Source: Gemmatimonadaceae bacterium
GTDB lineage: Bacteria > Gemmatimonadota > Gemmatimonadetes > Gemmatimonadales > Gemmatimonadaceae
Length of the DNA stretch: 61,014 nt
Direction: 5' to 3'
Assembly (NCBI GenBank): GCA_036274195.1
Contig: DASUGD010000178.1
Location: forward strand, 1 to 61,014
Shown piece by piece: positions 1 to 61,014 of this stretch (position 1 is its first letter; every line of letters begins with the position of its first letter). Made by a program: the position numbers and the translations under genes. The notes beneath the pieces were generated by a model that was not told the origin of the DNA, did no database searches, and worked only from the letters and a program-made list of their open reading frames with translations.

Positions 1-454
1 AGAACCGACAATCGACGACGCGAGCGAGGCGGGGCTCGGCGAAGGCGAGCCGCTCGATCGCGTCGTTCAGTTGAAGCATGGCTTCAGGCTGATCCTCGGC
101 CGGAACCACCTCGCTATTCAGCGTCACCCGCTGCCTGTGGCCCTCGCGTTTTTCGGCGAGGCGGGCCCGGGCGCGATCGACGAGCACATGCCGCATGACG
201 ACCGATGCCAGTGCGATGAAGTGCGCGCGATCGCGCCAGGTCGCACCCGGCTGGTCCGCGAGCTTCAGGTAGGCTTCGTGAACGAGCCCGGTGGTGGAGA
301 GCGTGTTACCGGGCTCTCTGGCGGACAGTTGCCGTCGGGCGATCTCGCGGAGCTCGTCGTACACGGCAGGCAGCAGCCCATCGAGGCTGGCGGGATCGCC
401 GGACCTCGCTTCGTTGGTGGAGTTGGCCCCCCCTGCCGACAGCCGCGTGGTCAC
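1..454 (-). CDS. ECF-type RNA polymerase sigma factor (TIGR02999/ECF43-like), partial; C-terminus runs off the window start
   Basis: Minus-strand frame with no stop inside the window (so absent from the ORF track) translates to ...SLDGLLPAVYDELREIARRQL...TTGLVHEAYLKLADQPGATWRDRAHFIALASVVMRHVLVDRARARLAEKR...MLQLNDAIERLAFAEPRLARVVDCRF. This is closely similar to the sigma factor at 11569..12156. Start is uncertain: GTG near 454 or TTG near 484. Confidence 0.65.
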   Translation of the reverse strand, partial: MTTRLSAGGANSTNEARSGDPASLDGLLPAVYDELREIARRQLSAREPGNTLSTTGLVHEAYLKLADQPGATWRDRAHFIALASVVMRHVLVDRARARLAEKREGHRQRVTLNSEVVPAEDQPEAMLQLNDAIERLAFAEPRLARVVDCRF

Positions 455-536
455 GAGTCGAAGCCTATCGAGGTTGGGTGCCAAGGTACAATCCGTCGGC
501 GGGAGCCGCCATGTACGATAGGGCGGCAGGCAGCAG

Positions 537-587
537 GCGACTGGCGACTGGCGACTGGCGACTGGCGACTGGCGACTGGCGACTGGC
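537..587. repeat. Tandem heptamer microsatellite (GCGACTG)x7 in a divergent promoter region
   Basis: Seven perfect head-to-tail copies of gcgactg between the sigma-factor start (~454, minus) and the M20 peptidase start (704, plus). Confidence 0.95.
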
Positions 588-703
588 AATACGTTGTGCG
601 AGCCAGCGTCTCGCGCCAGTTTCGGTACGGGCGTGCCGCTCCGAAGCGGCTCGGACCCGCATGACTCACACGTTAGGCACTCTGATCTCGCGAGGATTCT
701 TTC

Positions 704-2107
704 ATGATCAAGCGCATCGCGGCATGCACCATCCTGTGGGCCGCAGCCGCTCACGCGCAGAACAAGGCCCTTCCGCCGGAGCCCGAGCGTCAGGTCGCAC
801 GCGAGATCTACAAGGAGATGGTCGAGGTGAAATCCGGGTTCACGACCGGTGCGACGACGCCGATCGCGGAGAACGTCGCACGCCGCCTGAAGGCGGCCGG
901 GTTTCCCGAGGCGGACATCTTCGTCGGCGGTGCGATCCCGACCAAGGGGAACGTGGTGGTCAGGTACCGCGGCACCGGCAAGCGTCGCCCGATCCTGCTG
1001 CTCGCTCACATCGACGTCGTGGAAGCGAAGCCGGAAGACTGGAGCATGGATCCGTTCACGCTCGTCGAGAAGGACGGCTACTTCTATGGCCGAGGGACGG
1101 GCGATGACAAGGCGCAGGCGGCGATCTGGATCGCCAACCTGATCCGGTACAAGCGTGAGGGATACAAGCCCGATCGCGACATCATCGTGGCGCTCACGGC
1201 CGACGAGGAAGGCGGCGGTCCGTATAACGGCGTGAGCTGGCTGCTCAAGAACAAGCGCGAGCTCATCGATGCCGAGCTCGCGCTCAACGAGGGTGGATGG
1301 GGGGAGGCGTTAGGCGATACGAAGATCTCGAACGACGTCCAGGTCAGCGAGAAGTACGTCATCAACTATCGGTTCGAGGTCCGGAACAAGGGTGGCCACA
1401 GCTCGCTGCCCGTCGACGACAACGCGATCTACCACCTCGCCGGCGCGCTGGACCGGATTGCGAAGTTTCGCTTCCCGCTGGCGACGAACGACGTGACGCG
1501 CGCGTATTTCCGCGCGATGTCCAAGATCGAAAAGGGCCCGATCAGCGCCGACCTGGCCAAGGTTGCCGACGGCGACACGGCGGCGATGGCCCGGGTCGCG
1601 AAGGCGTCCACGCCGTGGAACGCGACGCTGCGCACGACGTGCGTCGCAACCCAGCTCGAGGGGGGCCACGCGAGGAACGCGCTTCCCCAGCTTGCGGCCG
1701 CGAACGTCAACTGTCGCGTGCTGCCCGACGATCAGATCGAATACGTCACGAAAACGCTGACGCAGGTGGTGGGAGATACCGCGGTGAGCATCAAGGTGGA
1801 TGGCACCCCAGTGCGTGGCCCCGCGTCGCCCATGCGCGCCGACCTGCTGCAGGCAGTCGCGTCGGTCACGAGCTCGGTGTGGCCCGGCGTTCCGACGGTC
1901 CCGATGATGGTGATGGGTGGGACGGACGGAATGTACCTGCGTCCGGCCGGTATTCCGACGTACGGTGTGCAGGGCATCTTCTACGACCGCGGGGACATTC
2001 GATTCCACGGCCGCGATGAGCGGGTGAAGGTGCAGTCGTTCTACGAGGGGCAGACGTTTTTGTACGAGCTCGTGAAGCGGCTCACGGGGGGACCACCAAT
2101 CGCCTGA
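704..2107 (+). CDS. M20 family metallopeptidase (ArgE/DapE/carboxypeptidase G2-like), secreted
   Basis: 467 aa ORF with N-terminal signal peptide MIKRIAACTILWAAAAHA. Contains the HIDVV and GRGTGDDK motifs typical of peptidase M20. Confidence 0.9.
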   Translation: MIKRIAACTILWAAAAHAQNKALPPEPERQVAREIYKEMVEVKSGFTTGATTPIAENVARRLKAAGFPEADIFVGGAIPTKGNVVVRYRGTGKRRPILLLAHIDVVEAKPEDWSMDPFTLVEKDGYFYGRGTGDDKAQAAIWIANLIRYKREGYKPDRDIIVALTADEEGGGPYNGVSWLLKNKRELIDAELALNEGGWGEALGDTKISNDVQVSEKYVINYRFEVRNKGGHSSLPVDDNAIYHLAGALDRIAKFRFPLATNDVTRAYFRAMSKIEKGPISADLAKVADGDTAAMARVAKASTPWNATLRTTCVATQLEGGHARNALPQLAAANVNCRVLPDDQIEYVTKTLTQVVGDTAVSIKVDGTPVRGPASPMRADLLQAVASVTSSVWPGVPTVPMMVMGGTDGMYLRPAGIPTYGVQGIFYDRGDIRFHGRDERVKVQSFYEGQTFLYELVKRLTGGPPIA

Positions 2108-2114
2108 CAACGCC

Positions 2115-3626
2115 ATGCGCATTCCGGCTCGCTGTTGTCTGCTGAGTCTCGCCCTCTCCGCCACGGGTCGCGCGGACGCCCAGCGCTCCATCGGGGCGTT
2201 CGACGGGCAGACCGATGTCGGTCGCGTGAGTCATGGCGGGAGTGTGTCGTACGACGCCGCGCGACAGGGCTATCTCGTCACCGGCGCGGGCCGAAACATG
2301 TGGGGATCGGAGGATGACTTCCACTTCGTGTGGAAGCGCCTAACGGGTAACTTCATCCTCTCCACACGGGCGTCGTTCGTCGGCCGCGGCACGGAGCCCC
2401 ACCGGAAGCTCGGCTGGACGATCCGGCCGTCGCTCGAGCCGAACGCCGCTCACGTGTCGGCGGCGGTGCACGGCAACGGCCTGATGTCGCTGCAGTTCCG
2501 CCGGGCGGCTGGCGGGAACACCGAGGAGATCAAGTCGCCCGACAGTCTGCCGGACCCGAATGTCGTTCTCCAGCTCGAGCGCCGCGACGGGACGTATCTC
2601 ATGTCGGTCGCGCGATTCGGCGATACGCTCGTGACGCAGCAGCTCACGGGCGTGTCGTTGCCCGACACCGTGTACGTCGGCCTCTACGTGTGCGCGCATA
2701 ACGACACGACCGTGGAGCGTGGCACGTTCAGCAACGTGCGCATCACGACGCCCGCCAAGCGCGACTTCGTTCCTTACCGCGACTACCTCGGCAGCAACCT
2801 GGAGATCCTCGACGTCGCGACGGGCAACACGACGATCGTGCACGAGTACCGCGGATCGTTTCAGGCGCCCAACTGGACGCCCGATGGCAAGGCGCTGATC
2901 TACGCGCAGGAGGGACGCCTCTACCGGTTCGACCTCTCCGCCCGTTCGCCCACACCGATCAATACGGGCTTCGCGACGCGCAACAACAACGACCACGTCC
3001 TTTCGTTCGACGGCAAGAGGCTCGGAATCAGCCACCACGCGGCGGAGGACAGTGGGGCATCCATCGTCTATACCGTGCCGGTGGCGGGCGGAACGCCGAA
3101 GCGCGTGACCGCGAAAGGCCCGTCGTACCTGCACGGCTGGTCGCCGGATGGCCGCTGGCTCGTGTATACGGGCCAGCGGAACGACCAATTCGATGTCTAC
3201 AAGATTCCGGCCGGCGGCGGCGACGAGATCCGCCTAACGTCCACACCCGGGCTCGACGACGGGCCGGAGTTCACGCCCGACGGGAAATACATCTACTTCA
3301 ACTCCTCGAGAACGGGACGCATGCAGATCTGGCGCATGCGCCCCGACGGGAGTGGCCAGGAGCAGGTCACGAACGACGGCTTCAACAACTGGTTCCCGCA
3401 TATCTCGCCGGACGGGAAGTGGATCGCGTACATCGCGTTTCCTCCGGACGTCGCGCCCGACGACCACCCGTTCTACAAGCACGTGCTGATCCGGTTGATG
3501 CCCATTCGGGGTGGGCCCGCGCGGGTGATCGCGTACGTGTACGGCGGCCAGGGTACGATCAACGTCCCGTCATGGTCGCCGGACGGCAAGCGGCTGGCGT
3601 TCGTGAGTAACTCCGGCCAGCCGTAG
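2115..3626 (+). CDS. PD40/TolB-like beta-propeller repeat protein with an N-terminal jelly-roll-like domain, secreted
   Basis: 503 aa ORF with a signal peptide. Repeated W(S/T)PDGK motifs: WTPDGKALIY, WSPDGRWLVY, FTPDGKYIYF, ISPDGKWIAY, WSPDGKRLAF. Confidence 0.85.
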   Translation: MRIPARCCLLSLALSATGRADAQRSIGAFDGQTDVGRVSHGGSVSYDAARQGYLVTGAGRNMWGSEDDFHFVWKRLTGNFILSTRASFVGRGTEPHRKLGWTIRPSLEPNAAHVSAAVHGNGLMSLQFRRAAGGNTEEIKSPDSLPDPNVVLQLERRDGTYLMSVARFGDTLVTQQLTGVSLPDTVYVGLYVCAHNDTTVERGTFSNVRITTPAKRDFVPYRDYLGSNLEILDVATGNTTIVHEYRGSFQAPNWTPDGKALIYAQEGRLYRFDLSARSPTPINTGFATRNNNDHVLSFDGKRLGISHHAAEDSGASIVYTVPVAGGTPKRVTAKGPSYLHGWSPDGRWLVYTGQRNDQFDVYKIPAGGGDEIRLTSTPGLDDGPEFTPDGKYIYFNSSRTGRMQIWRMRPDGSGQEQVTNDGFNNWFPHISPDGKWIAYIAFPPDVAPDDHPFYKHVLIRLMPIRGGPARVIAYVYGGQGTINVPSWSPDGKRLAFVSNSGQP

Positions 3627-3803: not shown

Positions 3804-4961
3804 TCACGGCCTCGACACCCCGTCGAGCGACTCCTGGTGGACCTTCCGAACCAGCGCCGAGACGAGTGACTTGAATCGCGGGTCGGACTCGGTCGCGTTA
3901 GGCGTGTACCGGCGCCCAATCGAGTCCATGTTCACCACGGCCTGGACCTCCGCCAGCGACACGAGGCCGCGCTCCAACGCCGCATGCACCTGGGCAATGA
4001 TCGACTCGAACAGGTCCCCCGTGAGCTGGAGATACGCCTTGTCGTGAAACGCGGGCCCCTGCCCCGGGACCACGATGGTCGCGTCCAGTCGCTCCAGCCC
4101 GCGAAGGCTGGTGAGCCACGGGGTGATCGCGTACGAGTTCGTCGTCCACGGGGGCGGTCCATTGCCTTCCTCCTGGGTGACGAGCGCATCGCCCATTACG
4201 AGGATCTTCTCCGCCGGCAGGTACAGCACCGTCGAGCCCGTGGCGTCGCCCGTCACGCTGATGAGCCGGAACTCGCGGCCACCGCTCCACAACACCAGCG
4301 AATCGTTGTAGGCGATCGTCGGCAGCACCCGTTTCACGTTCGCGACTTCTGCCGCAAACGCGGCAGTCTCGGCGATGTCCTTCTCGATCGTCCGGCGCGC
4401 CTCGGCCGTGAGCGGCGACCCGTCGCGCTGCTTCCCGGTTTGCACGGCCGTGTCGAGAGCCGCGCGCTGCCGGGCGACCTGTGTATTGAGGCCCTCGGCA
4501 AAGAATCGAGACCCCATGCGCTTCATGTAGTCGCGCGTCTCGGTCGTGGCGACGATCTGGAGTCCCGGGAACGCTTTCACATACTCGTCGTTCCCCGACC
4601 AGTGATCCTGATGCCAGTGCGAGTTGATCAGCGTTCGCACCGGTTTCGATGTGATCTTCCGGATCTCGGCGATCACCATCCGCGCGGTCCGAGCGCGCGT
4701 GTTGCTGTCGAAGACGGTGACGTCCTGGTCGTTGACGATCACGACGACGTTGGTGGCCGTCCACAGGTCTAGCGCGGAGGGTGCCCGGAAGAGGTAGATC
4801 CCGTCGCCAAGGGCCTCTTTCGTGAGCGAGGTATCCGGCGGCCCTTCGGCACACAGCGGACGCGCGGTGACGATGAGCCCCACGCACAGGGCAACCGAGT
4901 GGACGGCGGTGGCGACGATCTGGCGCGATGTCATGGCGAGGTTCGTTAGGTGAAACAGCAC
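3804..4961 (-). CDS. MBL-fold metallo-hydrolase, secreted
   Basis: 385 aa ORF. HWHQDHWSGN (HxHxDH) metallo-beta-lactamase fold motif. N-terminal hydrophobic signal. Confidence 0.85.
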   Translation of the reverse strand: MLFHLTNLAMTSRQIVATAVHSVALCVGLIVTARPLCAEGPPDTSLTKEALGDGIYLFRAPSALDLWTATNVVVIVNDQDVTVFDSNTRARTARMVIAEIRKITSKPVRTLINSHWHQDHWSGNDEYVKAFPGLQIVATTETRDYMKRMGSRFFAEGLNTQVARQRAALDTAVQTGKQRDGSPLTAEARRTIEKDIAETAAFAAEVANVKRVLPTIAYNDSLVLWSGGREFRLISVTGDATGSTVLYLPAEKILVMGDALVTQEEGNGPPPWTTNSYAITPWLTSLRGLERLDATIVVPGQGPAFHDKAYLQLTGDLFESIIAQVHAALERGLVSLAEVQAVVNMDSIGRRYTPNATESDPRFKSLVSALVRKVHQESLDGVSRP

Positions 4962-5586: not shown

Positions 5587-5702
5587 CGAGCCAGGTCACA
5601 GCGGCGGCCGCTCGATCGATTCTCCGGCATCGCGTTAGGTTAGATCGTGAACGCAGCGCTTGACGAGGGAGCCGCCGGCCTCCAAGTAGTAGGTTCCCTC
5701 AA

Positions 5703-6968
5703 ATGAGCGCGATGGCAACACCGACCGCAGCGCCCGTCGCCCCAGGGGCCGAGCAGCCTTCTGCTTCCCTCAACGGACCGCCGCGCGAGCCGGCGGTCCC
5801 GGTCGCTTACAGCTCGGAAACAGGTCGCACGTACCGGCTCGACCGGCTCATCGGCAAGGGAGGATTCGGCGAGGTCTACCTCGCCACGCCGATCCCACGC
5901 GACGGGCTCCCCGAACAGGTCTGCGTCAAGGTCAGCGACCGCCTTTCCGCGTGGCTTCGCGAGGCGTACTTCGCGGAACTGCTCGCGCGTGAGCCCCGCG
6001 CGCTCAAGGTGTACGACAGGTTCGCCGAGCTCGAGGGTCAGAAGATGCGGTACTGCCTGGCGATGGAGTACGCTCAGCACGGCGATCTCGGAGCGTGGCT
6101 CGCCAAGAAGGGCGCGGTCCCCGAACGAATCGTGCGCAGGGAGATCGCCGCGATCCTGAACGCGCTGAATGCCCTGCACAAGGGACAGGCCCTGCACCGC
6201 GATCTCACGCCATTCAACGTGTTCGTGTGCGAGGACGAGCAGCTCAAGCTCGGCGACTTCGGTATCGCGACCCATCAGCTGAGTCGCCGCGGTGTCACGG
6301 CCGACGCGTTCAACATGTTCAACGCGCCGACGGAGATCGCGTGGGGCAAGGTGCGACGCTGGCAGCAGCGCGACGACATCTTCCAGGTGGGACAGATCGC
6401 GGCGATGCTGTTGCGCGGCGACGTCACGAGCCCGATGCGCAGCAAGGATGTGCGCCGCCTGCCGTGCAGCGATCAATTGAAGGAGGTCATTCACCGCTGT
6501 CTTGGCGCGAGAGGGAAGCGCTACGAGGCGGCGGGTGAGCTGATCTCGGCACTGCGGCACCGGCCGGAGGAGGTGCGACCCGGTCGAAGCCGGGTCGCGA
6601 GCCTGGACGGCAAGCGGATCTCGATCACCGGCTTCCTGAGCCGCCCGCGCAGCGAAGCGATTGCCGCGGCGAGGAAGGCCGGCGCGACCTTTCAGTCGAA
6701 GCCGGGCCCATCGACCGACGTGCTGGTGCGAGGCAGACCTAACGCGCTGCAGATCGCCGGTACCGTGGGTGGTCTCAAGATCATGGAGATCCGGCGGCTC
6801 GCCGCGCGCGGACACCCGATCGCGGTGATTGGCGAGAAGCAGTTCTGGAAGCTCGTGGAACCCGCCTCGCGCTCCGCGGCGAGCTCGCGTCGCGGAAAGT
6901 CCAAGCCGGTGGGGCGCACAGCCCGCGCGAGCACCGGTCGGCGCGTGAGGGCGGAATCCCGGCGGTAA
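5703..6968 (+). CDS. Ser/Thr protein kinase with a C-terminal BRCT domain (atypical HRDLTPFN catalytic loop)
   Basis: GKGGFGEVY glycine loop, VCVKV, HRDLTPFNVFV, LGDFGIA. The C-terminal ~90 aa (GKRISITGFLSRPRSEAIAAARKAGATFQSKPGPSTDVLVRG...) resembles the BRCT domain of NAD-dependent DNA ligases. Confidence 0.85.
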   Translation: MSAMATPTAAPVAPGAEQPSASLNGPPREPAVPVAYSSETGRTYRLDRLIGKGGFGEVYLATPIPRDGLPEQVCVKVSDRLSAWLREAYFAELLAREPRALKVYDRFAELEGQKMRYCLAMEYAQHGDLGAWLAKKGAVPERIVRREIAAILNALNALHKGQALHRDLTPFNVFVCEDEQLKLGDFGIATHQLSRRGVTADAFNMFNAPTEIAWGKVRRWQQRDDIFQVGQIAAMLLRGDVTSPMRSKDVRRLPCSDQLKEVIHRCLGARGKRYEAAGELISALRHRPEEVRPGRSRVASLDGKRISITGFLSRPRSEAIAAARKAGATFQSKPGPSTDVLVRGRPNALQIAGTVGGLKIMEIRRLAARGHPIAVIGEKQFWKLVEPASRSAASSRRGKSKPVGRTARASTGRRVRAESRR

Positions 6969-6991: not shown

Positions 6992-8599
6992 TCATCGCGT
7001 TCCCTGCTCGCGCTGCCGCTCCGCCGCCGCCAGCCATTCGGCCATTCGCTGATCGTTCGCCCCGTACTGTGCCCAGCCGCGTGCCGTGCAGTTCCAGCGA
7101 TAGTCTTTGATCGACATGTCGATGCCGCGATCGATGAGGTACTGCATCGACGGGTAGTTGTCGTGGAACACAAGCTCGTGCAGGATGCTGGCCGGCTCGT
7201 GCGAGCTCCACGTCGTGTTGATGTCCGCGCCACGCTCCAACAGGAAATCGGCCACGTCGAAGTGGCGGTTGATGACGGCGAAGGCGAACGCCGAGTCGAG
7301 AATGCGTTGCGCATTCGGCGCGCCGGGCGGGAGCTCGTTCCGCGCCTGTGGGAGGTTGTACGGATAGTGGTGCTCGAGATCGCCCAGCACCGACGCTCCG
7401 GATGGATCGAACCAGCGCTGCACGCTCGTCAGGTCTCCGGTGCCCGCCGCGTGTGGCAGGTCGTCCGGCAACGGCCAGATACGGGTGAGCAGGGGAAGCA
7501 GGTGCGGCTTCTCGTAGGTCAGTGCGAACTCGATTGCCTGCGATGGCGGCGGCGGGTGGCGCCGACCTAACGCGGGGTCGAGGTCGAGCAGGGCGACGAT
7601 GAGCTCACCGCGATCGCGCATGACGGCGCGCTCGATCATCCCCACCTGAAATCCCACGTGATCGTCGTCGAGCAGCCACCGGTCGTGCTGCAACCCGGTC
7701 ACGAACCCCGCGAGTTCGCCATCCGCGATCGCGCGCAGGACCTGCTCCATGACGAACACCTGCCACGGCCCGGTCGGGTTGGCGTGCGAGAAGGCGAGCG
7801 AGCGTCGGTCGATGAGGTACCGAATGAAGTCACGGCGACCGACGCCCGCATCCACGTTCTGGCCAAGCTGTGCGTCGAGTGCAATGGCGCGGTCGAGCAG
7901 CACCGACGCAACTGCTTCATGCTGGAAGCTGCACGCGCACAGGAACGCGTCGTTGACCTCGGCGAGATCGTGCCGGTTGTGGCCGAGCGAGGACCGGACC
8001 GCGTCGAGATCGCCGAGCGCGGCGGAGTACTCGAGCGTGTCGGGCAGGAGGCTCTTGCGCCGAAACAGCTGCAGCAGTCCCCGGGCGCGGGAGGCAACGA
8101 CGCTCTCGGGCACGGATGGCAGCACGACCGCACCGGCATCGATCAGCACCTCCGCACATTCCGCGCGCGTGAAATCCCGCTCTCGCTGCGGATCGAAAGC
8201 GTCGCCATAGGCGCTCGCGGCGAATCCCAGCAGGCTCTGGTTGCCGTCAGTTCCCGTCCAGGAGAGCAGCTGCGGAAAGTCTCCCAGGAGCTTCGTTAGG
8301 CGCTCGACGTCATTGTCGTGGATGGCACGTCGCGCCTGGATCGCTGCCCATTCCAGCCCATTGCCGAGACGTTGGCTGACTTCGGCAATGAGATCGTGCC
8401 AGCCGTCGAAGCCGTATTCACGCGCGATCACGAGCTGCGCGTTGCGCTGTGTCAGCGGCAGGCGGACTTTCGGCAGCTGCGCTCGCACGCGGGTGACGGC
8501 GGCCGCGTCACCCGCTGCGACGTCGCGTGCAAGCTTCTTGGCCTGTTTGCGGAGGGACTCGAGCGACGGACGCTCGGGGAGGGACTTGGACGCGGTCAT
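6992..8599 (-). CDS. Ankyrin-repeat domain protein
   Basis: 535 aa ORF with no competing frame. Repeated LIDAGA.. and LLERGADIN ankyrin-like units. Confidence 0.7.
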   Translation of the reverse strand: MTASKSLPERPSLESLRKQAKKLARDVAAGDAAAVTRVRAQLPKVRLPLTQRNAQLVIAREYGFDGWHDLIAEVSQRLGNGLEWAAIQARRAIHDNDVERLTKLLGDFPQLLSWTGTDGNQSLLGFAASAYGDAFDPQRERDFTRAECAEVLIDAGAVVLPSVPESVVASRARGLLQLFRRKSLLPDTLEYSAALGDLDAVRSSLGHNRHDLAEVNDAFLCACSFQHEAVASVLLDRAIALDAQLGQNVDAGVGRRDFIRYLIDRRSLAFSHANPTGPWQVFVMEQVLRAIADGELAGFVTGLQHDRWLLDDDHVGFQVGMIERAVMRDRGELIVALLDLDPALGRRHPPPPSQAIEFALTYEKPHLLPLLTRIWPLPDDLPHAAGTGDLTSVQRWFDPSGASVLGDLEHHYPYNLPQARNELPPGAPNAQRILDSAFAFAVINRHFDVADFLLERGADINTTWSSHEPASILHELVFHDNYPSMQYLIDRGIDMSIKDYRWNCTARGWAQYGANDQRMAEWLAAAERQREQGTR

Positions 8600-9056
8600 T
8601 GCTACCTCCTTTCATGATCGCCTGTATCCCGCTGAAGACCAGGCTGAAAGAAGGTGCATGCGCACGCTATTCAGACCGAAACAGGTGGGAGTGTTCCCTT
8701 GCCGCGGGTAGGAGGCGCCCTGTCAGCGCTCTGCCAGCAGTATCGAGAGACGCCGCTTCGGTGTCAACGGTGTCCCAGTGCGCACGGAGCAAATTTGCGA
8801 ACATCGGTGGAATCGATGTTCGAAATCTGCGTTAGGTCTTGCCGTTGCCGTTCCGATGGTCGGAATCCATTACTGTTCGGAATGGCAACAACAGCGGCAC
8901 ATCGCTGCCTATTGGGGATTCAGCACCGCCAGATGAGCGCGCCGCCAACGCGCTGCGCATCGACCTGCACCGGCGGTTCCTCGGAGTGTGAAAGCCAGCC
9001 CATGGCTTTCGCGGGTGGCCACCGAGTGCGAGAATAACTTCTGCAACGACTGACTT

Positions 9057-9647
9057 GTGGAGGCCACCGTGAAGAAGATCCAGGTTCAGGGCGTTCACCA
9101 CACCACCATCGTGGGATCCACAAAACAGAGCGCGATCGACTTCTGGTCCGGCGTGCTCGGCATGCCATTCGTGCTCGAGCAACCGAACCTCGGCAAGCCC
9201 GACGAGAATCACCTCTACTTCGATCCGGGCGATGGACGGCTGCTCACGGTCTTCACCAACGAGGGCCGCAACGATGCCCGACGTCCGGCACCGCGAGAGG
9301 TCGGGTGCGTGGAGCACCTCGCGTTCAACGTCTCGCGCGCCACGTTCACGCTCGTACCAGGGCGCCTGCGCGAACGCGGCATCGAGTTCATCCAGCGCGA
9401 CCGCGGCTTCATGGACTCGATCTACCTGCAGGACCCGAACGGACTCAAGGTCGAGCTCGCGTGCTACAAGTTCGAGACGCCCGAGGGCTTTCGCGACGTC
9501 GATGTGCTGATGACCGCGCAGCGGCTGCGCGTCGAGCGGGGCGATCACCACATCACCGAAGAGCACCTTGCCGACGCGATCGAGTCTCTGTTGTCGACAC
9601 GCGACCGGCTCGATCCCGCCGAAACGCCGGAACCGGCGGTACGTTAG
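9057..9647 (+). CDS. VOC family protein (glyoxalase/bleomycin-resistance/dioxygenase fold)
   Basis: 196 aa. HHTTIVG...FW..VLGM..V and a second half-domain EHLAFNV..., typical of the duplicated beta-alpha-beta-beta-beta VOC fold. Confidence 0.8.
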   Translation: MEATVKKIQVQGVHHTTIVGSTKQSAIDFWSGVLGMPFVLEQPNLGKPDENHLYFDPGDGRLLTVFTNEGRNDARRPAPREVGCVEHLAFNVSRATFTLVPGRLRERGIEFIQRDRGFMDSIYLQDPNGLKVELACYKFETPEGFRDVDVLMTAQRLRVERGDHHITEEHLADAIESLLSTRDRLDPAETPEPAVR

Positions 9648-9648
9648 G

Positions 9649-10707: not shown

Positions 10708-10766
10708 GAGGTCGAGCGTGGCCAGCGCGGGAGGTCGGCTGACCATTGCTCGACGATCTATGACCG

Positions 10767-12156: not shown

Positions 12157-13193
<1,037 letters not shown>

Positions 13194-51310: not shown

Positions 51311-51532
51311 TCTCCCAAGGCTGGCGCGCGAGGACGCGCCGGTGATTCGCGTCGATGGCGTGAATGCCATCACCGGGGAGAACGCGGGGTAACATCAAAG
51401 GCGGACAGCACTTGCCACTCGACAGGGGGCAGCCCTAACGATAGACAGGGGTCAGGCCTGACTCCTGGTTGGTCTCACCGTCGCCGCCTCGACACAATCG
51501 AGGCACGATCCGATGCCGCTACTCGTCACGCA

Positions 51533-53311
51533 TCAGCGCGGGATCGGCACCAGCCCTGGAGTGATGCGCGTTTCGCTCGCGCCATTGCCCAACTGACCGT
51601 ACTTGTTGCTGCCCCAGCAATAGATGCTTCCATTCGCGACAACGCCGCAGACGTGACCGAAGCCAACGCTGATCGCGGTGAAGACGTGGCCGCCCACCAC
51701 CGCGCCGGGCCGAGTGTCGTCGGCGATGTCGTGCTGGCCGAGCGCCTCGGATTCCCGTCCCCAGCACAGAGCCGCGCCGTTGTCGGTGAGACCGCACGTG
51801 ACGCTGCGACCCGTCCCTCTGTTGACGCTGATGGTGCGAAACCGGTGGCCGCCGGCCACGGCTCGAGGTACGAGAGAGCTCCTGGTTGTTCCGTCGCCGA
51901 GCTCTCCCGATTCATTGTCCCCCCAACAATACCCGGCGCCGGTGGTACTGACTCCACACGTGTACAGGTTGCCCGCGCTGAGGGCGGAGAAGCGCAAGGC
52001 GCCGCCGACAGCGACAGGCCGCACGTGCGCCGTACTGTCCCCATCGCCAATCTGGCCCGATCGACCGGCGCCCCAGCAGTAGGCGCGGCCGTCGGTCGAG
52101 AGCGCGCAGCTATGGTCGAGCCCTGCGCTCACCGACCGGAACGTCAGGTTCGTCGCCACCTTGACCGGCGTTAGGCTCGCCGCCTTCGACCCGTTCCCCA
52201 GCTGTCCGTCGTCGTTCTCACCCCAACAGTACGCCGCGCCCGCGGTGGTGACACCACACGCGTGCGCAAACCCGGCAGTCAACGACGAGAACTTGAGATC
52301 ACCCGCAACGGCAACCGGTACGCCACGGTCGGCAGCGTCGCCCGGCACGGGCCCGGCGCCATCGTCAGGCTGCGCGTTTCCCCAACAGTACGGAGCGCCT
52401 GACGTGGTGAGCGCACACGCGAACGACCAGCCGGCGCTCACGCTCGCGAACCTCTGCTCGGTCGAGACGGGTACGGGGGAAAGGCTGCTGCCTCGTGTGC
52501 CGGTGCCAAGCTCCCCGTGTTCGTTGTCGCCCCAGCAGAACGCGGCGCCATCGCGGCGCAGCGCACAGGAGAATCCAGATCCCGCGCTCACGACCTCCGG
52601 CTCGGCGAGCGCAAAACGTCCGCGCAGCGCCACAGGGAATCGCCACGCCTCGAGCCGAGCGATCGCCTGCGTGATGCTGCGCGCCGTCGCGTCCGGCGGC
52701 TGCACGTTGAGCAGCACGCCGACGATCTCGCGCCGCTGGTTGAGCAGCGCGCCGCCAGAGTGTCCCGGGCTGACCAGCGTCGTCTCGAACGTGAGCAGGC
52801 TGTCGCTCGTGGACGAGATGGGTGCGGGTGCGACGTTCGTGCCCCACGGTCTCCCCTGCGGGTAGCCTAACGCGAAAACGCCATCACCGCGCGACAGCGA
52901 TGACGGTGAGCCCAGGCGATCGAACGGGATACTCGCGACGTCGATGCCGGCTGCCTTCACGCCCGGGATGGTCAGCACCGCCAGATCCAGCTTCGCGTCG
53001 AACGCCGTCGTCAGCGTCGCTCTCACGGGCTCTCCCGGCAAAGAGCGCAGCTCGACACGAATGTCGGTCGCTTCGTCGGCGCCACGTCGCACCACGTGAC
53101 TCGCCGTCACGACGTACAGCCGGTCGTTCGCCGCGCCGAAGATGATCCCTGCCCCGATGCTCTCCCTGCCATCGAGGTTGCAGCGAATCATCACGACGAG
53201 CTGCTCGGTCTCGCCCGATTCGCCCTGGGAAGCGAGTGGCGCGGCCGCGAGGGTTGTCGCGAGCAGCGCGCCGGCCATCGTCAGGGCACGGCGGAGCGGC
53301 GACCTGGTCAT
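51533..53311 (-). CDS. Trypsin-like serine peptidase domain fused to RCC1-repeat beta-propeller, secreted
   Basis: Start trimmed to MTRSPLRRALTMAGALLATTLAAAPLASQ. Protease motifs VVTASHVV and SPGHSGGALL. About 7 RCC1 repeats (CWGDNEHGELGTG, CWGNAQ.., CWGENDDGQLGNG, CWGAGRSGQIGDG, CWGDNESGELGDG, CWGRESEALG.., CWGSNKYGQLGNG). ATGA overlap with the upstream gene. Confidence 0.85.
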   Translation of the reverse strand: MTRSPLRRALTMAGALLATTLAAAPLASQGESGETEQLVVMIRCNLDGRESIGAGIIFGAANDRLYVVTASHVVRRGADEATDIRVELRSLPGEPVRATLTTAFDAKLDLAVLTIPGVKAAGIDVASIPFDRLGSPSSLSRGDGVFALGYPQGRPWGTNVAPAPISSTSDSLLTFETTLVSPGHSGGALLNQRREIVGVLLNVQPPDATARSITQAIARLEAWRFPVALRGRFALAEPEVVSAGSGFSCALRRDGAAFCWGDNEHGELGTGTRGSSLSPVPVSTEQRFASVSAGWSFACALTTSGAPYCWGNAQPDDGAGPVPGDAADRGVPVAVAGDLKFSSLTAGFAHACGVTTAGAAYCWGENDDGQLGNGSKAASLTPVKVATNLTFRSVSAGLDHSCALSTDGRAYCWGAGRSGQIGDGDSTAHVRPVAVGGALRFSALSAGNLYTCGVSTTGAGYCWGDNESGELGDGTTRSSLVPRAVAGGHRFRTISVNRGTGRSVTCGLTDNGAALCWGRESEALGQHDIADDTRPGAVVGGHVFTAISVGFGHVCGVVANGSIYCWGSNKYGQLGNGASETRITPGLVPIPR

Positions 53312-54321: not shown

Positions 54322-55127
54322 TGATTGCCGCGCGCAGATGGCGAGCCTGGATGAAACAGGAAAAACTCCGAGGTCAATGACCCGCCGCGCTTGCGCGTCG
54401 CGCCGATGCGCACGTAGTAGAAGCCTCGGGCCGCGAGCGGCTCGAGCGTGATGTCGATCGCGCGCTCGGCAGGATAAAAGCCGTACGCGAGATTTTCGTC
54501 GCGCTGGAGATACTTCACGGGCTTCCCATCGGAGCCGGTGGTGGCGAGCGTGATGAACACGTCGTTCAGCTCCACATTCGACCAGAGGGCGAGTCGGTAT
54601 CGTGTCGAGCGGGCGGGCGGCTTGTGCCGACCAATCCGCAAGGGCACGAGAACGTCGCGGCGTTCACCACCGAGCATTGCCGAAGCCGACCCGGTCACGC
54701 CGATGTCGGCGTTGCTGATTCGAAGGGCTTGCAGAACGTCGGCGGGCCAGAGGTAGGAGCTCGCCGCGATCGGCGTCGCCGTGTCCATCCTGTAGAACAG
54801 CCCTGGCTTGATCGAATATGCGCGCAGCCTCACGGCCTCGCCGTCCGGCGGCGTCCACTCGACGCGGAGCGGAAGCGACGACGTGTCATCGATGGTCTCG
54901 AAGCTTTCCACCAGCGAAGCCACCAGGAGATCGGAGCTGCCGCTGACCTCCTGGGCATAGACGCCTTCGCACCGGTCGCCACGCTGGCGATATCGCAACG
55001 GGTCGCTCTCGCGCGTCTTGAGCGAGTCGCAGGCGACGACAACGTTAGGCGTGAGGCGGCTGGAGCCGGGTGCCTGGACGATCAGGGCGAGTCCGAGCAG
55101 GCAAAGGCTGGACGGTATTCGCAGCAT
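54318..55127 (-). CDS. Hypothetical secreted protein
   Basis: Start trimmed to MLRIPSSLCLLGLALIVQAPG (signal peptide). First gene of a 3-gene overlapping operon on the minus strand. Confidence 0.6.
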   Translation of the reverse strand: MLRIPSSLCLLGLALIVQAPGSSRLTPNVVVACDSLKTRESDPLRYRQRGDRCEGVYAQEVSGSSDLLVASLVESFETIDDTSSLPLRVEWTPPDGEAVRLRAYSIKPGLFYRMDTATPIAASSYLWPADVLQALRISNADIGVTGSASAMLGGERRDVLVPLRIGRHKPPARSTRYRLALWSNVELNDVFITLATTGSDGKPVKYLQRDENLAYGFYPAERAIDITLEPLAARGFYYVRIGATRKRGGSLTSEFFLFHPGSPSARGNQ

Positions 55128-56762: not shown

Positions 56763-56859
56763 CGGATCGGGCGGGAAGGATAGCTGACGGGTTGTTGGTG
56801 TCTGACAGAAATGGCGACGGACACGTCCCGCGTCGCGCCAGTCCGGCATCGCGTTAGGG

Positions 56860-57162: not shown

Positions 57163-59595
57163 TCACCGCGGACGCAGCGCAATCGCCGGGTCGATCCGTG
57201 TCGCTCGACGTGCGGGGACGTATCCGGCCAGCACGGCGACAGCCGCCAGAACCGCGACCACACCTGCGTACGTCACGGGGTCCGACGAGCCGACATCGAA
57301 CAGGAGCCCACGAATCGCCCGCGTCGCCAGCCACGATACCGGCAAACCCACCGCGACCCCGACGAGCACCAGCACACCCGTCTCGCCAAAGACGCCCGCG
57401 CGCAGCCTCTCCGGCGTCGCGCCTAACGCCATCCGGATGCCAATCTCCTGGGTGCGCTGGCTCACGGAGTACGAGGTCACCGCATAGAGTCCCAGACACG
57501 ACAGCGTCAAGCCAAACGCGGCGAACCCCGCGACCAGCAGCACCGTGAACCGGCGCGCGAACACGGAGTGATCGACGAGCTCCTCCATCGTGCGGAACTC
57601 CACCACCGGCAGGCTCGCGTCCATTCGGCGTAGTGCCGCGCGAACGCCGGCCGCCAGCGCCGTGGACGGAATTGCCCCGCGGACGACCAGATCCACCGAC
57701 TGATAGTCGCCCGTCTGACGGATCGGCATGTACATCTCGGCGTCGACCCCGCGATCCAGCCCGAAATACCGCACGTCGCCGACCACGCCCACCACCCGGC
57801 GACTCGTCCGGCTTGCCTTCACGACGCGCCCGATCGGATCCTTCCCTGGCCAGAGTGCGCCGGCCAGCGTCTCGTTGATGATGATGACCGGTTCACTCGC
57901 GGAGTCGTCCGCCGCGGTAAACGATCGGCCGGCACGGACGGGGATCTTCATCGCCGCGAGGTAGCCCTCATCGACCATTCGCACGAGCGGCTGAATGCTC
58001 TGACCGGCGTTAGGCTCGATACCGTCTGCCGACGCGGTCCACCGACGCCAGCCGAAGTTGTCTCCGAGTGGGAGGGCGTCGGTGAGACCGAGCGCTTGGA
58101 CTCCGGGCATGGAACGAACCGCGCGCACCGCTGCCTCGAAGTAGAGAGTTCGCTCGGCGAACGTCGACCGGACGCGGGACGGATCCACGCGGACGGCTAT
58201 CAGGTTCTCCGTCGCAAAGCCCGGCTGCACATCGAGCACGCGCCCGAGGCTGCGAATGAGCAGGCCCGCGCCCGCGCAGAGGACACACGCCAGCGCAACC
58301 TCCGCCACGACGATCGTGCGCCGCGCCGCGCCTCCGCGCCGCGACGTGGACCCGCGACTCGCCTCGGCCAGCGCGACCGGGAGCGCATCCGCGGAGGTCT
58401 GAAATGCGGGAACGAGACCGAACACGACGCCCGTCACGACGGCCATCAGCGCCGCGAACGCGAGCGCCACGTGGTCGACGCGCACGTCGTGGAGGAGCGG
58501 AATGGTGGTGCCCTGCAGGCGCGACACGAGTGCGGTCGCCGTCATGGCGAAGAGGACCCCGACGCCGGCACCGGCGACCGAGACGACCAGACTCTCGGCG
58601 AGCATCTGGCGCATCAGATCTCCACGCGTCGCGCCTAACGCGGCACGGATCGCCATCTCACGCTGTCGGCGTGACGCGCGAACGAGCAGCAGATTGGAAA
58701 CGTTCGCGCAGACGAGGAGCATGAGGAACGCAACCGCACCGGCGAGGACGATGAGCGCGGACTGGAACCGTCCGCTGATGTGCTCGCGCAGGGTCGCCAG
58801 CCTCGGGTTGAAGCCGTTGCGGTAACTATCCTGGACCCTTCCGCTCTTGAAGCGCGACGCGATGACCGTGGCTTCCGCCTGTGCCGTTCGCAGGTCGACG
58901 CCGTGCCGCAGCCGGCCAACCAGCGCGAGCGTATTGCCCTGGCGGTTCGTCTCGGGACTCAACGGGAACGGCAGGAACAGATCGACACGGCGACCAGGAA
59001 TGAACGTCGCCTCGAAGTCGAAGGCCTCGGGGAGGACGCCGATCACCGTGACCGGCTTCCCGTCCAGGATGATCGATTTGCCAACAATGGCGGGGTCTCC
59101 GGCGAAGCGTCGCTGCCAGAACCGGTAGTCGAGCACGGCCGTCCCCGGCGCATTGAATCGGCTCTCCGACTCGTCGAAGAACCTTCCCGCGTGTGGCCTA
59201 ACGCCAAGCAGCGGGAAAAACGTCTGGGTGACCGGCACGCCGGTCAACCGTTCCGGCTCGCCACTGCCCGTCAGGCGAATGTCACCCGGGGCATAGAACT
59301 GAAAGAAGCCGGCAACGCCTTCGAGCGACCGACTCTGTTCCCGGAGCTCGACCAGGTTCACCACCTGAACCGTCTGTGCCGAGAGGTTTTCGGACGTGCC
59401 GTTGGCGATCCATACGAGCCGGTCGGGGTCCTCGAACGGGAGAGGCCGAAGCAGGAGCGCCTGACAGAGACTGAAAACGGTGGCGCTGGCTCCGATCCCG
59501 AGCCCGACGATCGCAATGCTGAACACCGCGGCGCTCCGGTCGAACCGCATGGACCGGAGCGCGTTGCGGACATCGTGGGCGACGTTCAGCACGAC
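57163..59595 (-). CDS. ADOP-family duplicated FtsX/MacB-like ABC transporter permease
   Basis: N-terminal DVRNALRSMRFDRSAAVFSIAIVGLGIGA is the ADOP signature. Two FtsX domains with 4 TM helices each. True start is probably a GTG near 59595 rather than the ORF-track start at 59736. Confidence 0.85.
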   Translation of the reverse strand, partial: VVLNVAHDVRNALRSMRFDRSAAVFSIAIVGLGIGASATVFSLCQALLLRPLPFEDPDRLVWIANGTSENLSAQTVQVVNLVELREQSRSLEGVAGFFQFYAPGDIRLTGSGEPERLTGVPVTQTFFPLLGVRPHAGRFFDESESRFNAPGTAVLDYRFWQRRFAGDPAIVGKSIILDGKPVTVIGVLPEAFDFEATFIPGRRVDLFLPFPLSPETNRQGNTLALVGRLRHGVDLRTAQAEATVIASRFKSGRVQDSYRNGFNPRLATLREHISGRFQSALIVLAGAVAFLMLLVCANVSNLLLVRASRRQREMAIRAALGATRGDLMRQMLAESLVVSVAGAGVGVLFAMTATALVSRLQGTTIPLLHDVRVDHVALAFAALMAVVTGVVFGLVPAFQTSADALPVALAEASRGSTSRRGGAARRTIVVAEVALACVLCAGAGLLIRSLGRVLDVQPGFATENLIAVRVDPSRVRSTFAERTLYFEAAVRAVRSMPGVQALGLTDALPLGDNFGWRRWTASADGIEPNAGQSIQPLVRMVDEGYLAAMKIPVRAGRSFTAADDSASEPVIIINETLAGALWPGKDPIGRVVKASRTSRRVVGVVGDVRYFGLDRGVDAEMYMPIRQTGDYQSVDLVVRGAIPSTALAAGVRAALRRMDASLPVVEFRTMEELVDHSVFARRFTVLLVAGFAAFGLTLSCLGLYAVTSYSVSQRTQEIGIRMALGATPERLRAGVFGETGVLVLVGVAVGLPVSWLATRAIRGLLFDVGSSDPVTYAGVVAVLAAVAVLAGYVPARRATRIDPAIALRPR

Positions 59596-59754
59596 TCCTC
59601 GCAGGTTTGAGCCGCGGAATTGGACAGCTCGTTCGCGGTGAAGGTTTCGGGTACTGCGGATGTGAACCGCGGAGGTCGCGAAGGTCACAGAGAACGACTC
59701 GGCGCTCCTCTGCGTTCTCTGCGAACTCCGCGGCAAAAAACGTCGTTAATCGAC

Positions 59755-60843
59755 CTAACGAGCCAACTCGGCCCCTTCGTCTGCCAACTCCGGTTCATCG
59801 GCAGCAAGCAGCTCGCGCACGCGCGGAATGACCTCGCGCCCGTAAAGCTCGATGCTGCGCATCATCTTCTCGTGCGAGAGCGTCCCGGCGCTGTACTTCA
59901 TGTCGAACCGCGCGAGCCCGAGCGCGCTCGACGTCGCCGCGATCTTCTTCGCCACCGTCTCGGGCGTGCCGACGTACAGCGACCCGGCCTCGATCTCGCG
60001 ATCGAACTCCAGTCGGCTCGTCGGCCCCCACCCCCGCTCGGCGCCGATGCGATTCCGCATCTCGCGCCACGCCGGCCACAGCTCCTCGCGCGCCTGTTGG
60101 TCGGTGTCTGCAATGTGACCGGGCGAATGCACGCCGATCGGAAGTGGCTCGGCGTCGACCTGCTCGAGCGCCCGATGGTACAGGTCGACGTAAGGCGCGA
60201 AGCGGAGCGGGTTGCCGCCGATGATCGCCAGCATGAGCGGCAGGCGATATCGCGCCGCTCGCACCACGGACTCCGGGCTGCCGCCCACACCGATCCAGGT
60301 CGTGAGGTGGCCGCTGGCAGTCGGTGGGTACACGCGCTTCGCGTCGAGTGGCGCGCGCGTTGTACCGCTCCACGTCACCGGCGTGCCAGCGCGATTCGCC
60401 TCGAGCAGCGCGGCGAACAGCTCGAGCTTCTCCTCGAAGAGCGTTTCGTACTGGTCCAGCGGATAGCCGAAGAGCGGGAATGACTCGATGAACGATCCGC
60501 GGCCAAGGATGACTTCGGCCCGCCCGTTCGACGCGGCGTCGAGCGTGGCGAAGCGCTGGAAGACGCGCACCGGGTCATCGGAGCTCAGCACCGTTACCGC
60601 GGAGCCGAGCCGGATGCGGCTCGTGCGGCCGGCGATCGCGGCGAGAACGACTTCGGGGGATGAGACGGCGAAATCGGCGCGGTGATGCTCGCCGACGCCG
60701 ATGAAATCGACGCCCAGCTGGTCGGCGAGGACCGCCTCGTCGATGAGATTGCGGATGACCTGGGCCTGCGGGAGGGGTCGACCGTCGGCGCCAAGCGTGA
60801 CGTCGCCGAACGTGTCGAGCCCGAGCTCGAGATATGGCTTCAT
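59755..60843 (-). CDS. LLM-class (luciferase-like) flavin-dependent oxidoreductase
   Basis: 362 aa. LGLDTFGDV...LGVDFIGVGEHH...RIRLGSAVTVLSSDDPVRVFQRFATLD is a typical LLM TIM-barrel signature. Confidence 0.9.
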   Translation of the reverse strand: MKPYLELGLDTFGDVTLGADGRPLPQAQVIRNLIDEAVLADQLGVDFIGVGEHHRADFAVSSPEVVLAAIAGRTSRIRLGSAVTVLSSDDPVRVFQRFATLDAASNGRAEVILGRGSFIESFPLFGYPLDQYETLFEEKLELFAALLEANRAGTPVTWSGTTRAPLDAKRVYPPTASGHLTTWIGVGGSPESVVRAARYRLPLMLAIIGGNPLRFAPYVDLYHRALEQVDAEPLPIGVHSPGHIADTDQQAREELWPAWREMRNRIGAERGWGPTSRLEFDREIEAGSLYVGTPETVAKKIAATSSALGLARFDMKYSAGTLSHEKMMRSIELYGREVIPRVRELLAADEPELADEGAELAR

Positions 60844-61014
60844 GTGACGAAATCTGTCGTGAGGATTCAGGCGGATGGCCGCGCAGCCCGCCGCGATGGT
60901 GAATCACCCATCGCGACGAGCTGCGATTTAGCGTCTCGGCCGTCCTGCTGGACTGATCCGTGAGGCGGTCGAATGGTTCCCGGCGGGGTCAGAGTCCTAA
61001 CCCATCATTCCAGC

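Follow-up and report, generated by a model that had tools for sequence, protein, structure and literature searches.

An over-represented CGTTAGG(C) word in DNA of an uncultured soil Gemmatimonadaceae lineage and several phages, with features like those of DNA uptake sequences

To our knowledge, genome-wide words for DNA uptake or self-recognition are established only in the Neisseriaceae, which have the DNA uptake sequence (DUS), and in the Pasteurellaceae, which have the uptake signal sequence (USS), with cyanobacterial HIP1 (short for highly iterated palindrome 1) as a debated third case. Here we describe the word CGTTAGG, mostly extended to CGTTAGGC, in a stretch of 61,014 nt with 66.6% GC from a Gemmatimonadaceae bacterium (contig DASUGD010000178.1 of assembly GCA_036274195.1), which was analysed over its whole length and is called the window below. 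In the described systems, the spacing of DUS matches the size of conversion or recombination tracts (PMC2397512), and USS and DUS roughly double the tripeptides that they encode in the proteome (PMC2817400). The spacing of USS is significantly even according to the work of Karlin as cited in PMC1939737, and temperate phages of Pasteurellaceae accumulate the USS of their host, up to a host-like density (PMC6776037). HIP1 is 15–300 fold over-represented, conserved above the neutral level and non-randomly spaced (PMC5861425), and according to two preprints it has lately been connected to natural transformation (10.1101/2024.09.10.611283, 10.64898/2026.06.24.733823). By analogy with DUS and USS, we assume with a probability of roughly one half that CGTTAGG(C) belongs to this type of 'self' word, being specific to its lineage, present throughout the genome and spread by a bias in uptake or recombination.

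CGTTAGG occurs 67 times in the window (29 copies on the + strand and 38 on the - strand, 1.10 copies/kb), and 49 of the 67 copies are extended to CGTTAGGC, the top-ranking 8-mer of the window. An earlier note on this DNA, made from the letters, had counted about 65–70 copies, most of them extended to the 8-mer, in a balance of about 28 versus 38 between the orientations, and all of this agrees with our count; its example positions each lie 0–11 bases from a real copy, most of them 4 or fewer. The expectation is 7.0 copies from base composition (order 0) and 2.4–8.8 from Markov models of order 1 to order 3, while dinucleotide-preserving shuffles contain 3.08 ± 1.73 copies with a maximum of 9. 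Moreover, synonymous-codon shuffles, in which all protein sequences and the global codon usage are held fixed, contain 2.7 ± 1.6 copies versus the 49 seen inside coding sequences (CDSs), an excess of about 18-fold. The large excess over chance that had been claimed earlier is thus borne out, with 67 copies against 3.1 and 2.7 in the two kinds of shuffle. Order-4 and order-5 Markov models predict 49 and 65 copies, and they reach the observed count because the 5- and 6-mer sub-words are nearly absent outside CGTTAGG (67 of the 73 occurrences of TTAGG in the window fall within it). Since these models absorb the word itself, their expectation was rejected as a refutation, and the Markov comparison that the earlier note had suggested was judged invalid at these two orders; the shuffles, the codon-preserving null and other genomes were used as controls in their place. 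Across 1.57 Mb of other high-GC genomes (Actinobacteria) CGTTAGG is found at 0.010 copies/kb, so that the window is about 100 times denser, and across 0.94 Mb of unrelated phage contigs it is found at 0.037 copies/kb.

The copies are given below with coordinates, strand, form (8-mer for CGTTAGGC, 7-mer for the core alone), place and, inside CDSs, orientation relative to the gene and the residues encoded. L001, L003, L004 and L005 are contigs of relatives treated further below, and IleRS is isoleucyl-tRNA synthetase.

1..61014, no strand: array of 67 dispersed CGTTAGG copies, 49 as CGTTAGGC
671..677, +: 8-mer, intergenic
1308..1314, +: 8-mer, CDS 704-2107(+), sense, A-L-G
2339..2345, -: 8-mer, CDS 2115-3626(+), antisense, R-L-T
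3233..3239, -: 8-mer, CDS 2115-3626(+), antisense, R-L-T
3896..3902, +: 8-mer, CDS 3804-4961(-), antisense, P-N
4944..4950, +: 7-mer, CDS 3804-4961(-), antisense, H-L-T
5633..5639, +: 7-mer, intergenic
6738..6744, -: 7-mer, CDS 5703-6968(+), antisense, P-N
7566..7572, -: 7-mer, CDS 6992-8599(-), sense, A-L-G
8294..8300, +: 8-mer, CDS 6992-8599(-), antisense, R-L-T
8830..8836, +: 7-mer, intergenic
9642..9648, +: 8-mer, TAG stop of CDS 9057-9647(+)
10672..10678, +: 8-mer, TAG stop of CDS 10294-10677(+), hairpin arm
10697..10703, -: 8-mer, intergenic, opposite hairpin arm
12074..12080, +: 8-mer, CDS 11359-12156(+), sense, A-L-G
12889..12895, +: 8-mer, CDS 12153-13193(+), sense, P-L-G
13708..13714, -: 8-mer, CDS 13249-14214(+), antisense, P-N
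14116..14122, -: 7-mer, CDS 13249-14214(+), antisense, P-N
15651..15657, +: 7-mer, CDS 14863-16608(+), sense, V-R
16956..16962, -: 8-mer, CDS 16658-18955(-), sense, P-L-G
17558..17564, +: 7-mer, CDS 16658-18955(-), antisense, T-L-T
18102..18108, -: 8-mer, CDS 16658-18955(-), sense, S-L-G
19756..19762, -: 8-mer, CDS 18955-19824(+), antisense, P-N
20037..20043, -: 8-mer, CDS 20016-22595(+), antisense, P-N
21061..21067, +: 8-mer, CDS 20016-22595(+), sense, T-L-G
22564..22570, +: 8-mer, CDS 20016-22595(+), sense, T-L-G
23326..23332, -: 8-mer, CDS 22763-23929(+), antisense, R-L-T
23925..23931, -: 7-mer, TAA stop of CDS 22763-23929(+)
24173..24179, -: 8-mer, CDS 24020-25459(+), antisense, P-N
24757..24763, -: 8-mer, CDS 24020-25459(+), antisense, R-L-T
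25540..25546, -: 8-mer, CDS 25529-27775(+), antisense, C-L-T
26288..26294, -: 8-mer, CDS 25529-27775(+), antisense, P-N
27541..27547, +: 8-mer, CDS 25529-27775(+), sense, V-R
27975..27981, +: 8-mer, CDS 27789-29012(-), antisense, C-L-T
29600..29606, -: 8-mer, CDS 29293-30564(-), sense, T-L-G, kept in L005
30293..30299, -: 8-mer, CDS 29293-30564(-), sense, A-L-G, kept in L005
31032..31038, +: 8-mer, CDS 30739-31809(+), sense, V-R
33039..33045, -: 8-mer, IleRS 32073-35225(+), antisense, P-N, also in L004 and L005; CCC in L003, GCG (Ala) in the wordless L001
34500..34506, -: 8-mer, IleRS 32073-35225(+), antisense, P-N; P-S in L003, P-A in L001
35057..35063, -: 8-mer, IleRS 32073-35225(+), antisense, R-L-T with the rare CTA; CTG/TTG in relatives
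35747..35753, +: 7-mer, CDS 35574-36143(-), antisense, P-N, kept in L005
36482..36488, -: 7-mer, CDS 36404-36658(+), antisense, P-N; CCCAACG in L005
37017..37023, -: 8-mer, intergenic, kept in L005
38324..38330, -: 7-mer, intergenic, not in L005
39713..39719, -: 7-mer, intergenic; CCTGATG in L005
39844..39850, +: 8-mer, intergenic, kept in L005
42126..42132, -: 8-mer, CDS 41022-42269(+), antisense, P-N, kept in L005
43662..43668, +: 8-mer, CDS 43432-44247(+), sense, V-R
44220..44226, +: 8-mer, CDS 43432-44247(+), sense, V-R
45106..45112, -: 8-mer, CDS 45070-46968(+), antisense, P-N
46049..46055, +: 8-mer, CDS 45070-46968(+), sense, T-L-G
46964..46970, -: 8-mer, TAA stop of CDS 45070-46968(+)
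47083..47089, -: 8-mer, intergenic
47295..47301, -: 8-mer, TAG stop of CDS 47296-48138(-)
48809..48815, -: 7-mer, CDS 48142-50397(-), sense, S-L-G
49716..49722, +: 7-mer, CDS 48142-50397(-), antisense, P-N
50693..50699, +: 8-mer, intergenic
51434..51440, -: 7-mer, intergenic
52169..52175, +: 8-mer, CDS 51533-53329(-), antisense, S-L-T
52866..52872, -: 8-mer, CDS 51533-53329(-), sense, A-L-G
55043..55049, +: 8-mer, CDS 54318-55127(-), antisense, P-N
56852..56858, +: 7-mer, intergenic
57422..57428, -: 8-mer, CDS 57163-59592(-), sense, A-L-G
58008..58014, +: 8-mer, CDS 57163-59592(-), antisense, P-N
58634..58640, -: 8-mer, CDS 57163-59592(-), sense, A-L-G
59197..59203, -: 8-mer, CDS 57163-59592(-), sense, V-R
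59754..59760, -: 7-mer, TAG stop of CDS 59755-60843(-)

The copies are spaced more evenly than random placement allows. The gaps between them have a mean of 895 nt and a coefficient of variation (CV) of 0.54, versus 0.98 for random placement, and a CV as low as 0.54 was reached in 0 of 20,000 random placements (P<5e-5). Gaps shorter than 400 nt number 6 versus 23.5 expected, the largest gap is 2282 nt, whereas in random placement the largest averages 4,286 nt, and the counts per gene are under-dispersed. The earlier note had named a strand skew as a pointer to a different role; the + and - copies (29:38) are interleaved along the window, so that there is no local skew on this scale (61 kb, below that of a replichore). 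The only close inverted pair in the window (10672/10697) forms a hairpin:

10665..10710, no strand: hairpin with a 20-bp stem from the inverted CGTTAGG pair, dG -41.6 kcal/mol, z -6.6

This hairpin sits between convergent genes, has a T-rich tail and is terminator-like on the - strand.

A pool of 156 host copies yields the motif [not C]CGTTAGG[C], in which position 8 is C in 74% of the copies, and in the same pool the flanks are not conserved past one base on either side; one-mismatch variants of CGTTAGG are not enriched in the window. On a gene map drawn by codon usage (47 genes, 90% of the window), 49 copies (73%) lie in CDSs, 12 are intergenic and 6 form a stop codon, four of them TAG and two TAA, and the comparison of coding with intergenic DNA that the earlier note had proposed gives a density about twice as high between genes as within them. 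The copies in CDSs occupy all four frames that are free of the word's own stops, where they are read as Pro-Asn (17), Leu-Gly (15), Leu-Thr (11) and Val-Arg (6). Relative to the genes, 25 copies are sense and 30 antisense, and they are uniformly spread along the genes; a role at the level of RNA or transcription was rejected on account of this balance and uniformity. In addition, the word contains 15 of the 24 TTA and 11 of the 22 CTA codons, both rare for leucine, and it encodes 17 of the 47 Pro-Asn dipeptides of the window. Four frames, both gene orientations, rare codons and the excess of about 18-fold over the protein-preserving null support a pressure that acts on the DNA word, against codon preference, and not on a peptide or an RNA. 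The earlier note had argued in the same direction from the frames and the rare TTA and CTA codons, and its argument holds on both counts. Among the 47 called genes, TAG (21) is about as common a stop codon as TGA (22), and TAA is used in 3.

The codon alignment of IleRS has copies at different sites in different relatives, each 1–2 substitutions away from the wordless state. Some are made by synonymous changes to rare codons (CTG to CTA, GTG-CGG to GTT-AGG) and others by amino-acid changes to Asn (from Asp or Ser) or to Pro (from Ala), which shows that copies originate by point substitution. The contig L005 is syntenic with 29.3–42.3 kb of the window at 85.7% nucleotide identity, and it keeps 9 of the 12 copies found in this part of the window versus 38% of random 7-mers (P=0.011), which shows that copies are retained above the neutral rate. 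The unshared copies (3 in the window only and 4 in L005 only) are mostly 1–2 bases off in the other genome, with one site unalignable. Furthermore, Pro-Asn occurs 2.71 times per 1000 residues in word-rich loci and 1.40 times in relatives without the word (odds ratio 1.95, Fisher P=1.4e-5), and the reversed control, Asn-Pro, is just 1.3-fold higher in word-rich loci.

The genes of the window are typical of Gemmatimonadota (TonB-dependent receptors with CarboxypepD_reg, MacB/FtsX permeases, Ser/Thr kinases with TPR repeats), and the named relatives of its IleRS (32073-35225) include metagenome-assembled genomes (MAGs) of Gemmatimonadaceae. The density of CGTTAGG in the relatives, by identity of their IleRS to that of the window, is as follows:

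93% identical: L005, Gemmatimonadaceae bacterium SMAG_U7800 (GTDB), 1.22 copies/kb
88–90% identical: L003, L004 (ENA, JGI), 0.88–0.99 copies/kb
86–89% identical: L460, L462, L463 (ENA, JGI), 0.69–0.83 copies/kb
84–85% identical: L001, L002, L461 (ENA, JGI), 0 copies/kb
78% identical: L027, MAG SMAG_U7856, 0.35 copies/kb
77% identical: L008 (Gemmatimonadaceae), L009 (Gemmatimonas sp.), about 0.1 copies/kb

A second, independent sample of relatives was drawn with the SPFH-domain protein (CDS 14863-16608) as query. Contigs on which this protein is at least 83% identical bear 0.3–0.57 copies/kb, and those at 82% or less are essentially without CGTTAGG, with sporadic exceptions such as L120 (4 copies in 11.5 kb). 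CGTTAGG is restricted to one lineage of uncultured soil Gemmatimonadaceae, its density is graded among relatives, and most other Gemmatimonadota loci in the sample have about 0.1 copies/kb or none. The earlier note had suggested looking for the same word in related genomes, and there it is, at 0.35–1.2 copies/kb in independent metagenome contigs and a GTDB MAG. Two signals were considered as dialects, that is, alternative words of sister lineages, and both were rejected. The second word of L008, GTAGAACA, belongs to a 23–24-nt tandem array, and GCCATGGC in L003 has only 6 sites, which are counted twice because GCCATGGC is a palindrome. The array of L008, a wordless Gemmatimonadaceae relative, lies at 21170–21340 and consists of about 8 copies of the 23–24-nt repeat GGGGAAGCGCAGAGCGTAGAACA. 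In L460, the longest word-free stretch (13537–16911, 3.4 kb) spans an IS21 IstB-like fragment, a single case that fits recently acquired mobile DNA without the word. As for the IleRS itself, that of the window is 72–80% identical to the enzymes of Pseudonocardiales (Actinobacteria; L007-L084) and 77–79% to those of other Gemmatimonadaceae, and because the two ranges match, the sequences suggest that this type of IleRS may have moved between phyla. Since Pseudonocardiales share it, a GTDB scan with the IleRS of the window gave mainly actinobacterial matches; no record of the identical enzyme was found, and the nearest one with a name is that of SMAG_U7800.

Phage genomes bear the word as well. 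IMG/VR was scanned for close CGTTAGG pairs, by a direct-pair search that favours pairs on the same strand, and at least seven viral contigs, most of them with evident phage genes, bear CGTTAGG at 0.5–2.5 copies/kb; the phage motif (n=90) is the same as in the host, [not C]CGTTAGG[C]. IMGVR_UViG_3300003324_000477 is a 28.5-kb contig from an HK97-like phage and has about 69% GC; it encodes an HNH endonuclease, the small and large terminase subunits, portal, protease, major head protein, adaptor, tape measure and Dit, and it has 36 copies along its entire length (1.26/kb, CV 0.60, largest gap 2 kb). The relatives of its large terminase subunit (TerL; 79 contigs, at most 62% identical) have 0.04 copies/kb, and L465, whose Dit is 59% identical to that of this contig, has 1.24 copies/kb. 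Further word-dense viral contigs carry a tape measure gene (L348), a terminase gene (L355, L435) or a gene for a tail protein (L403), a ParB-like protein (L351) or a RecE-like protein (L364). In L386 (IMGVR_UViG_3300049057_000028, 1-11824), with small open reading frames (ORFs) without known identity and a dNMP-phosphatase-like gene, the density is 2.5 copies/kb, about twice that of the host, and the strands are at 9:21. The orientation of the word relative to the phage genes differs from phage to phage. Since CGTTAGG is dense in several phages, intracellular readings of a Chi-like or HIP1-like kind stay alive. A viral contig of 55% GC, L231, has at 2019–2097 a tandem array (GTCGTTAG)n that gives many overlapping matches and is unrelated to the dispersed CGTTAGG.

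All the statistical hallmarks that were tested are consistent with a DUS/USS-like word, because the density, the even spacing, the intergenic enrichment, the hairpin, the gain by substitution, the peptide footprint, the restriction to a lineage and the carriage by phages match; the step from these to DNA uptake or transformation is one that we infer by analogy. Cells of the clade would take up or recombine word-bearing fragments in preference to wordless ones, and point mutations that create CGTTAGG in homologous fragments would, because of this proposed preference, be over-transmitted, a molecular drive to which selection for exchange within the species is possibly added. The word would then accumulate where the sequence tolerates it (in the four stop-free frames, intergenic DNA and stop codons) until about every recombination-sized fragment has one copy, which would account for a density near 1/kb with even spacing, and phages that reside long in these hosts would gain it in the same way. 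The earlier note had proposed an uptake sequence too, and for that reading the excess, the DNA-level pressure, the native origin and the absence of a local skew stand, while the support that it sought in a TfoX-C gene at 36694 is poor. The ORF is present and is given here as context only:

36694..37008, +: ORF of 104 aa with a TfoX_C domain only (PF04994, E 5.9e-17)

It is without the TfoX N-terminal domain, and it has no homologue in any of the fetched loci, including the syntenic interval of L005, the closest word-bearing relative, which already weighs against uptake. So do several further points. The DNA examined, which consists of contigs, yielded none of the machinery for competence (type IV pilus, ComEA, ComEC, DprA), and nothing in the literature searched ties Gemmatimonadota to uptake sequences or reports a CGTTAGG word. 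The specified core of 7–8 nt is shorter than DUS (10–12 nt) and USS (9 nt plus flanks), and there is no dialect in the sister lineages sampled. An excess on one strand is seen in L005 (5:14) and L027 (1:7) among the relatives of the host and in the viral contig L386 (9:21). No integrase or lysogeny genes were detected on IMGVR_UViG_3300003324_000477, an incomplete contig of 28.5 kb, and the above-host density of L386 is easier to explain by intracellular selection on phage DNA than by uptake drive.

CGTTAGG may instead act inside the cell. A HIP1-like word in cis, read by a chromosome-associated protein or a methyltransferase for nucleoid organisation, for strand-marking in repair or in an epigenetic role, would be kept by selection at about one copy per kilobase in any replicon of these cells, phages included. 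The 20–100 fold excess and the conservation above neutral match HIP1 (PMC5861425), even spacing without long gaps suits a function that covers the whole chromosome, and phage densities at or above that of the host would be natural. However, CGTTAGG is not palindromic, so that the logic of symmetric Dam/Dcm-like methylation proposed for HIP1 does not transfer, neither a binding protein nor a methyltransferase was identified, and for a core function of the chromosome one would not expect a narrow clade with close relatives of similar biology that lack the word; we regard such a role as unlikely. Because HIP1 itself is now tied to transformation, it also merges in part with the DUS/USS-like reading. 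Known Chi sites are asymmetric and of the 7–8-mer size class, as CGTTAGG is, and the word could be a Chi-like 'self' signal at DNA ends, at which a helicase-nuclease of the RecBCD/AddAB type, or another nuclease or defence system, switches from degradation to repair and which phages mimic. Several unrelated phages carry it densely, one of them at double the host density, it separates self from foreign DNA sharply, and the phage contigs L386 (9:21), L348 (7:1) and L351 (1:7) tend to one strand, but these excesses come from small samples and are in part a consequence of the direct-pair search, and the orientation relative to the phage genes is inconsistent among phages. Characterised Chi sites are about 70–80% co-oriented with replication, and no such strong co-orientation is seen locally, over the 61 kb of the host's window, where the two orientations are interleaved at 29:38. 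Both the more than 20-fold excess and the density of 1/kb go well beyond what is known of Chi sites, the word is not rich in G and its even spacing also counts against this role, which we consider quite unlikely. We think it rather unlikely that the word is an orientation-independent intracellular 'self' mark and not an uptake tag, for example if DNA that bears it about once per kilobase were spared by a defence system or by a nuclease that processes ends and phages mimicked it, sometimes above the host density.

A functionless origin would be a sequence-specific bias of mutation or repair, similar to very-short-patch repair, that turns near-matches into the word in any resident DNA. The gain of copies by point substitution at non-homologous sites, the word in phage DNA and the graded density among relatives, as for a slow process, speak in its favour, but it predicts Poisson-like spacing, not short-range exclusion without long gaps, and it would leave the above-neutral retention at rare-codon sites unexplained. 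Vsr/Dcm-type repair biases give excesses well below two-fold, far smaller than the 20–100 fold seen here, and we hold this origin to be very unlikely. Finally, an artefact of the record, which the earlier note had allowed for, or fragments of a mobile repeat, such as a repetitive extragenic palindrome (REP) or a miniature inverted-repeat transposable element (MITE), have practically no chance of being the explanation. The word is native, since independent assemblies from ENA, JGI and GTDB have it both at orthologous sites and at new ones; this refutes both explanations, and a mobile repeat is further refuted in that there is no conserved unit beyond CGTTAGG and about one base on either side and 73% of the copies lie within intact CDSs.

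Several tandem repeats were seen in the window besides the word. Two 7-nt arrays of opposite orientation, AGGGATG x11.4 (9650–9729) and then CCCTCAT x6.3 (9797–9840), with a core of about 67 nt between them, are intergenic and downstream of CDS 9057-9647, and the AGGGATG array begins directly after the copy that supplies the stop of this CDS. A perfect 7-nt repeat, GGCGACT x7.4 (536–587), is intergenic and upstream of CDS 704-2107. The 17-nt arrays at 50427–50700, CGCGAAATCCCGAACTA and CGCTCTTCGGGATTCAG, are inverted around a central spacer and flanked by a Ser/Thr kinase gene and CDS 50711-51373, and a separate 17-nt array, GTCTGCAGTTCTCTACA x3.4, is found at 29207–29264.

If CGTTAGG is DUS/USS-like, such words would arise repeatedly beyond the host-associated Proteobacteria, here in the Gemmatimonadaceae, an abundant and nearly uncultured soil lineage, and this would be a sign that gene exchange in soil is sequence-biased. 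If it acts inside the cell, it would be a new self-marking system imitated by phages, and an orientation-independent mark would be a new kind of sequence-based discrimination of self from non-self, separate from Chi and from methylation. The word could also serve as a culture-free marker (about 1/kb versus 0.01/kb elsewhere) that assigns metagenomic contigs, plasmids and phages to the host clade, and the graded densities together with the gain and loss of sites are a natural time series for models of drive versus selection.

We place CGTTAGG among the hyper-abundant, lineage-specific genomic words, next to DUS, USS and HIP1. Like the DUS of Neisseriaceae (core GCCGTCTGAA, with dialects), it is non-palindromic, present at about 1/kb in both orientations and lineage-specific, and DUS is likewise enriched between genes and forms inverted pairs with terminator-like hairpins, a feature weaker here than in Neisseria since the window of 61 kb has one such pair. 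The rise of Pro-Asn in word-rich loci parallels the peptide enrichment by USS and DUS (PMC2817400). Unlike DUS, CGTTAGG combines an AT-rich core, which holds stop codons on either strand, with a genome of 67% GC, about 73% of its copies lie in CDSs versus about 35% of DUS, it has no dialects in the sister lineages sampled, and it belongs to a different phylum. With the USS of Pasteurellaceae (AAGTGCGGT / ACAAGCGGT) it shares the density of about 1/kb, the mostly genic location in several frames and both orientations, the even spacing, the slow accumulation and the presence in phages that live with the host (PMC6776037), whereas it has no AT-rich flanking consensus, a shorter core and a host among uncultured soil Gemmatimonadaceae. 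HIP1 (GCGATCGC) is also a hyper-abundant octamer of a non-proteobacterial phylum without a gene-level function, and CGTTAGG falls into its class of excess (15–300 fold, with sites conserved between genomes); HIP1, however, is a palindrome, has two orphan methyltransferases and is phylum-wide, while CGTTAGGC is not its own reverse complement and is confined to a narrow clade. Chi (for example GCTGGTGG) is similar as an asymmetric, over-represented 7–8-mer that marks self DNA, but it is co-oriented with replication and occurs about once per 4–5 kb in modest excess, whereas CGTTAGG is without local skew, reaches 1/kb and exceeds expectation by far more. What is new compared with DUS, USS and HIP1 is that a short, AT-cored motif containing stops occurs in a GC-rich genome, that its host is a narrow uncultured soil clade, and that several unrelated phages share the word.

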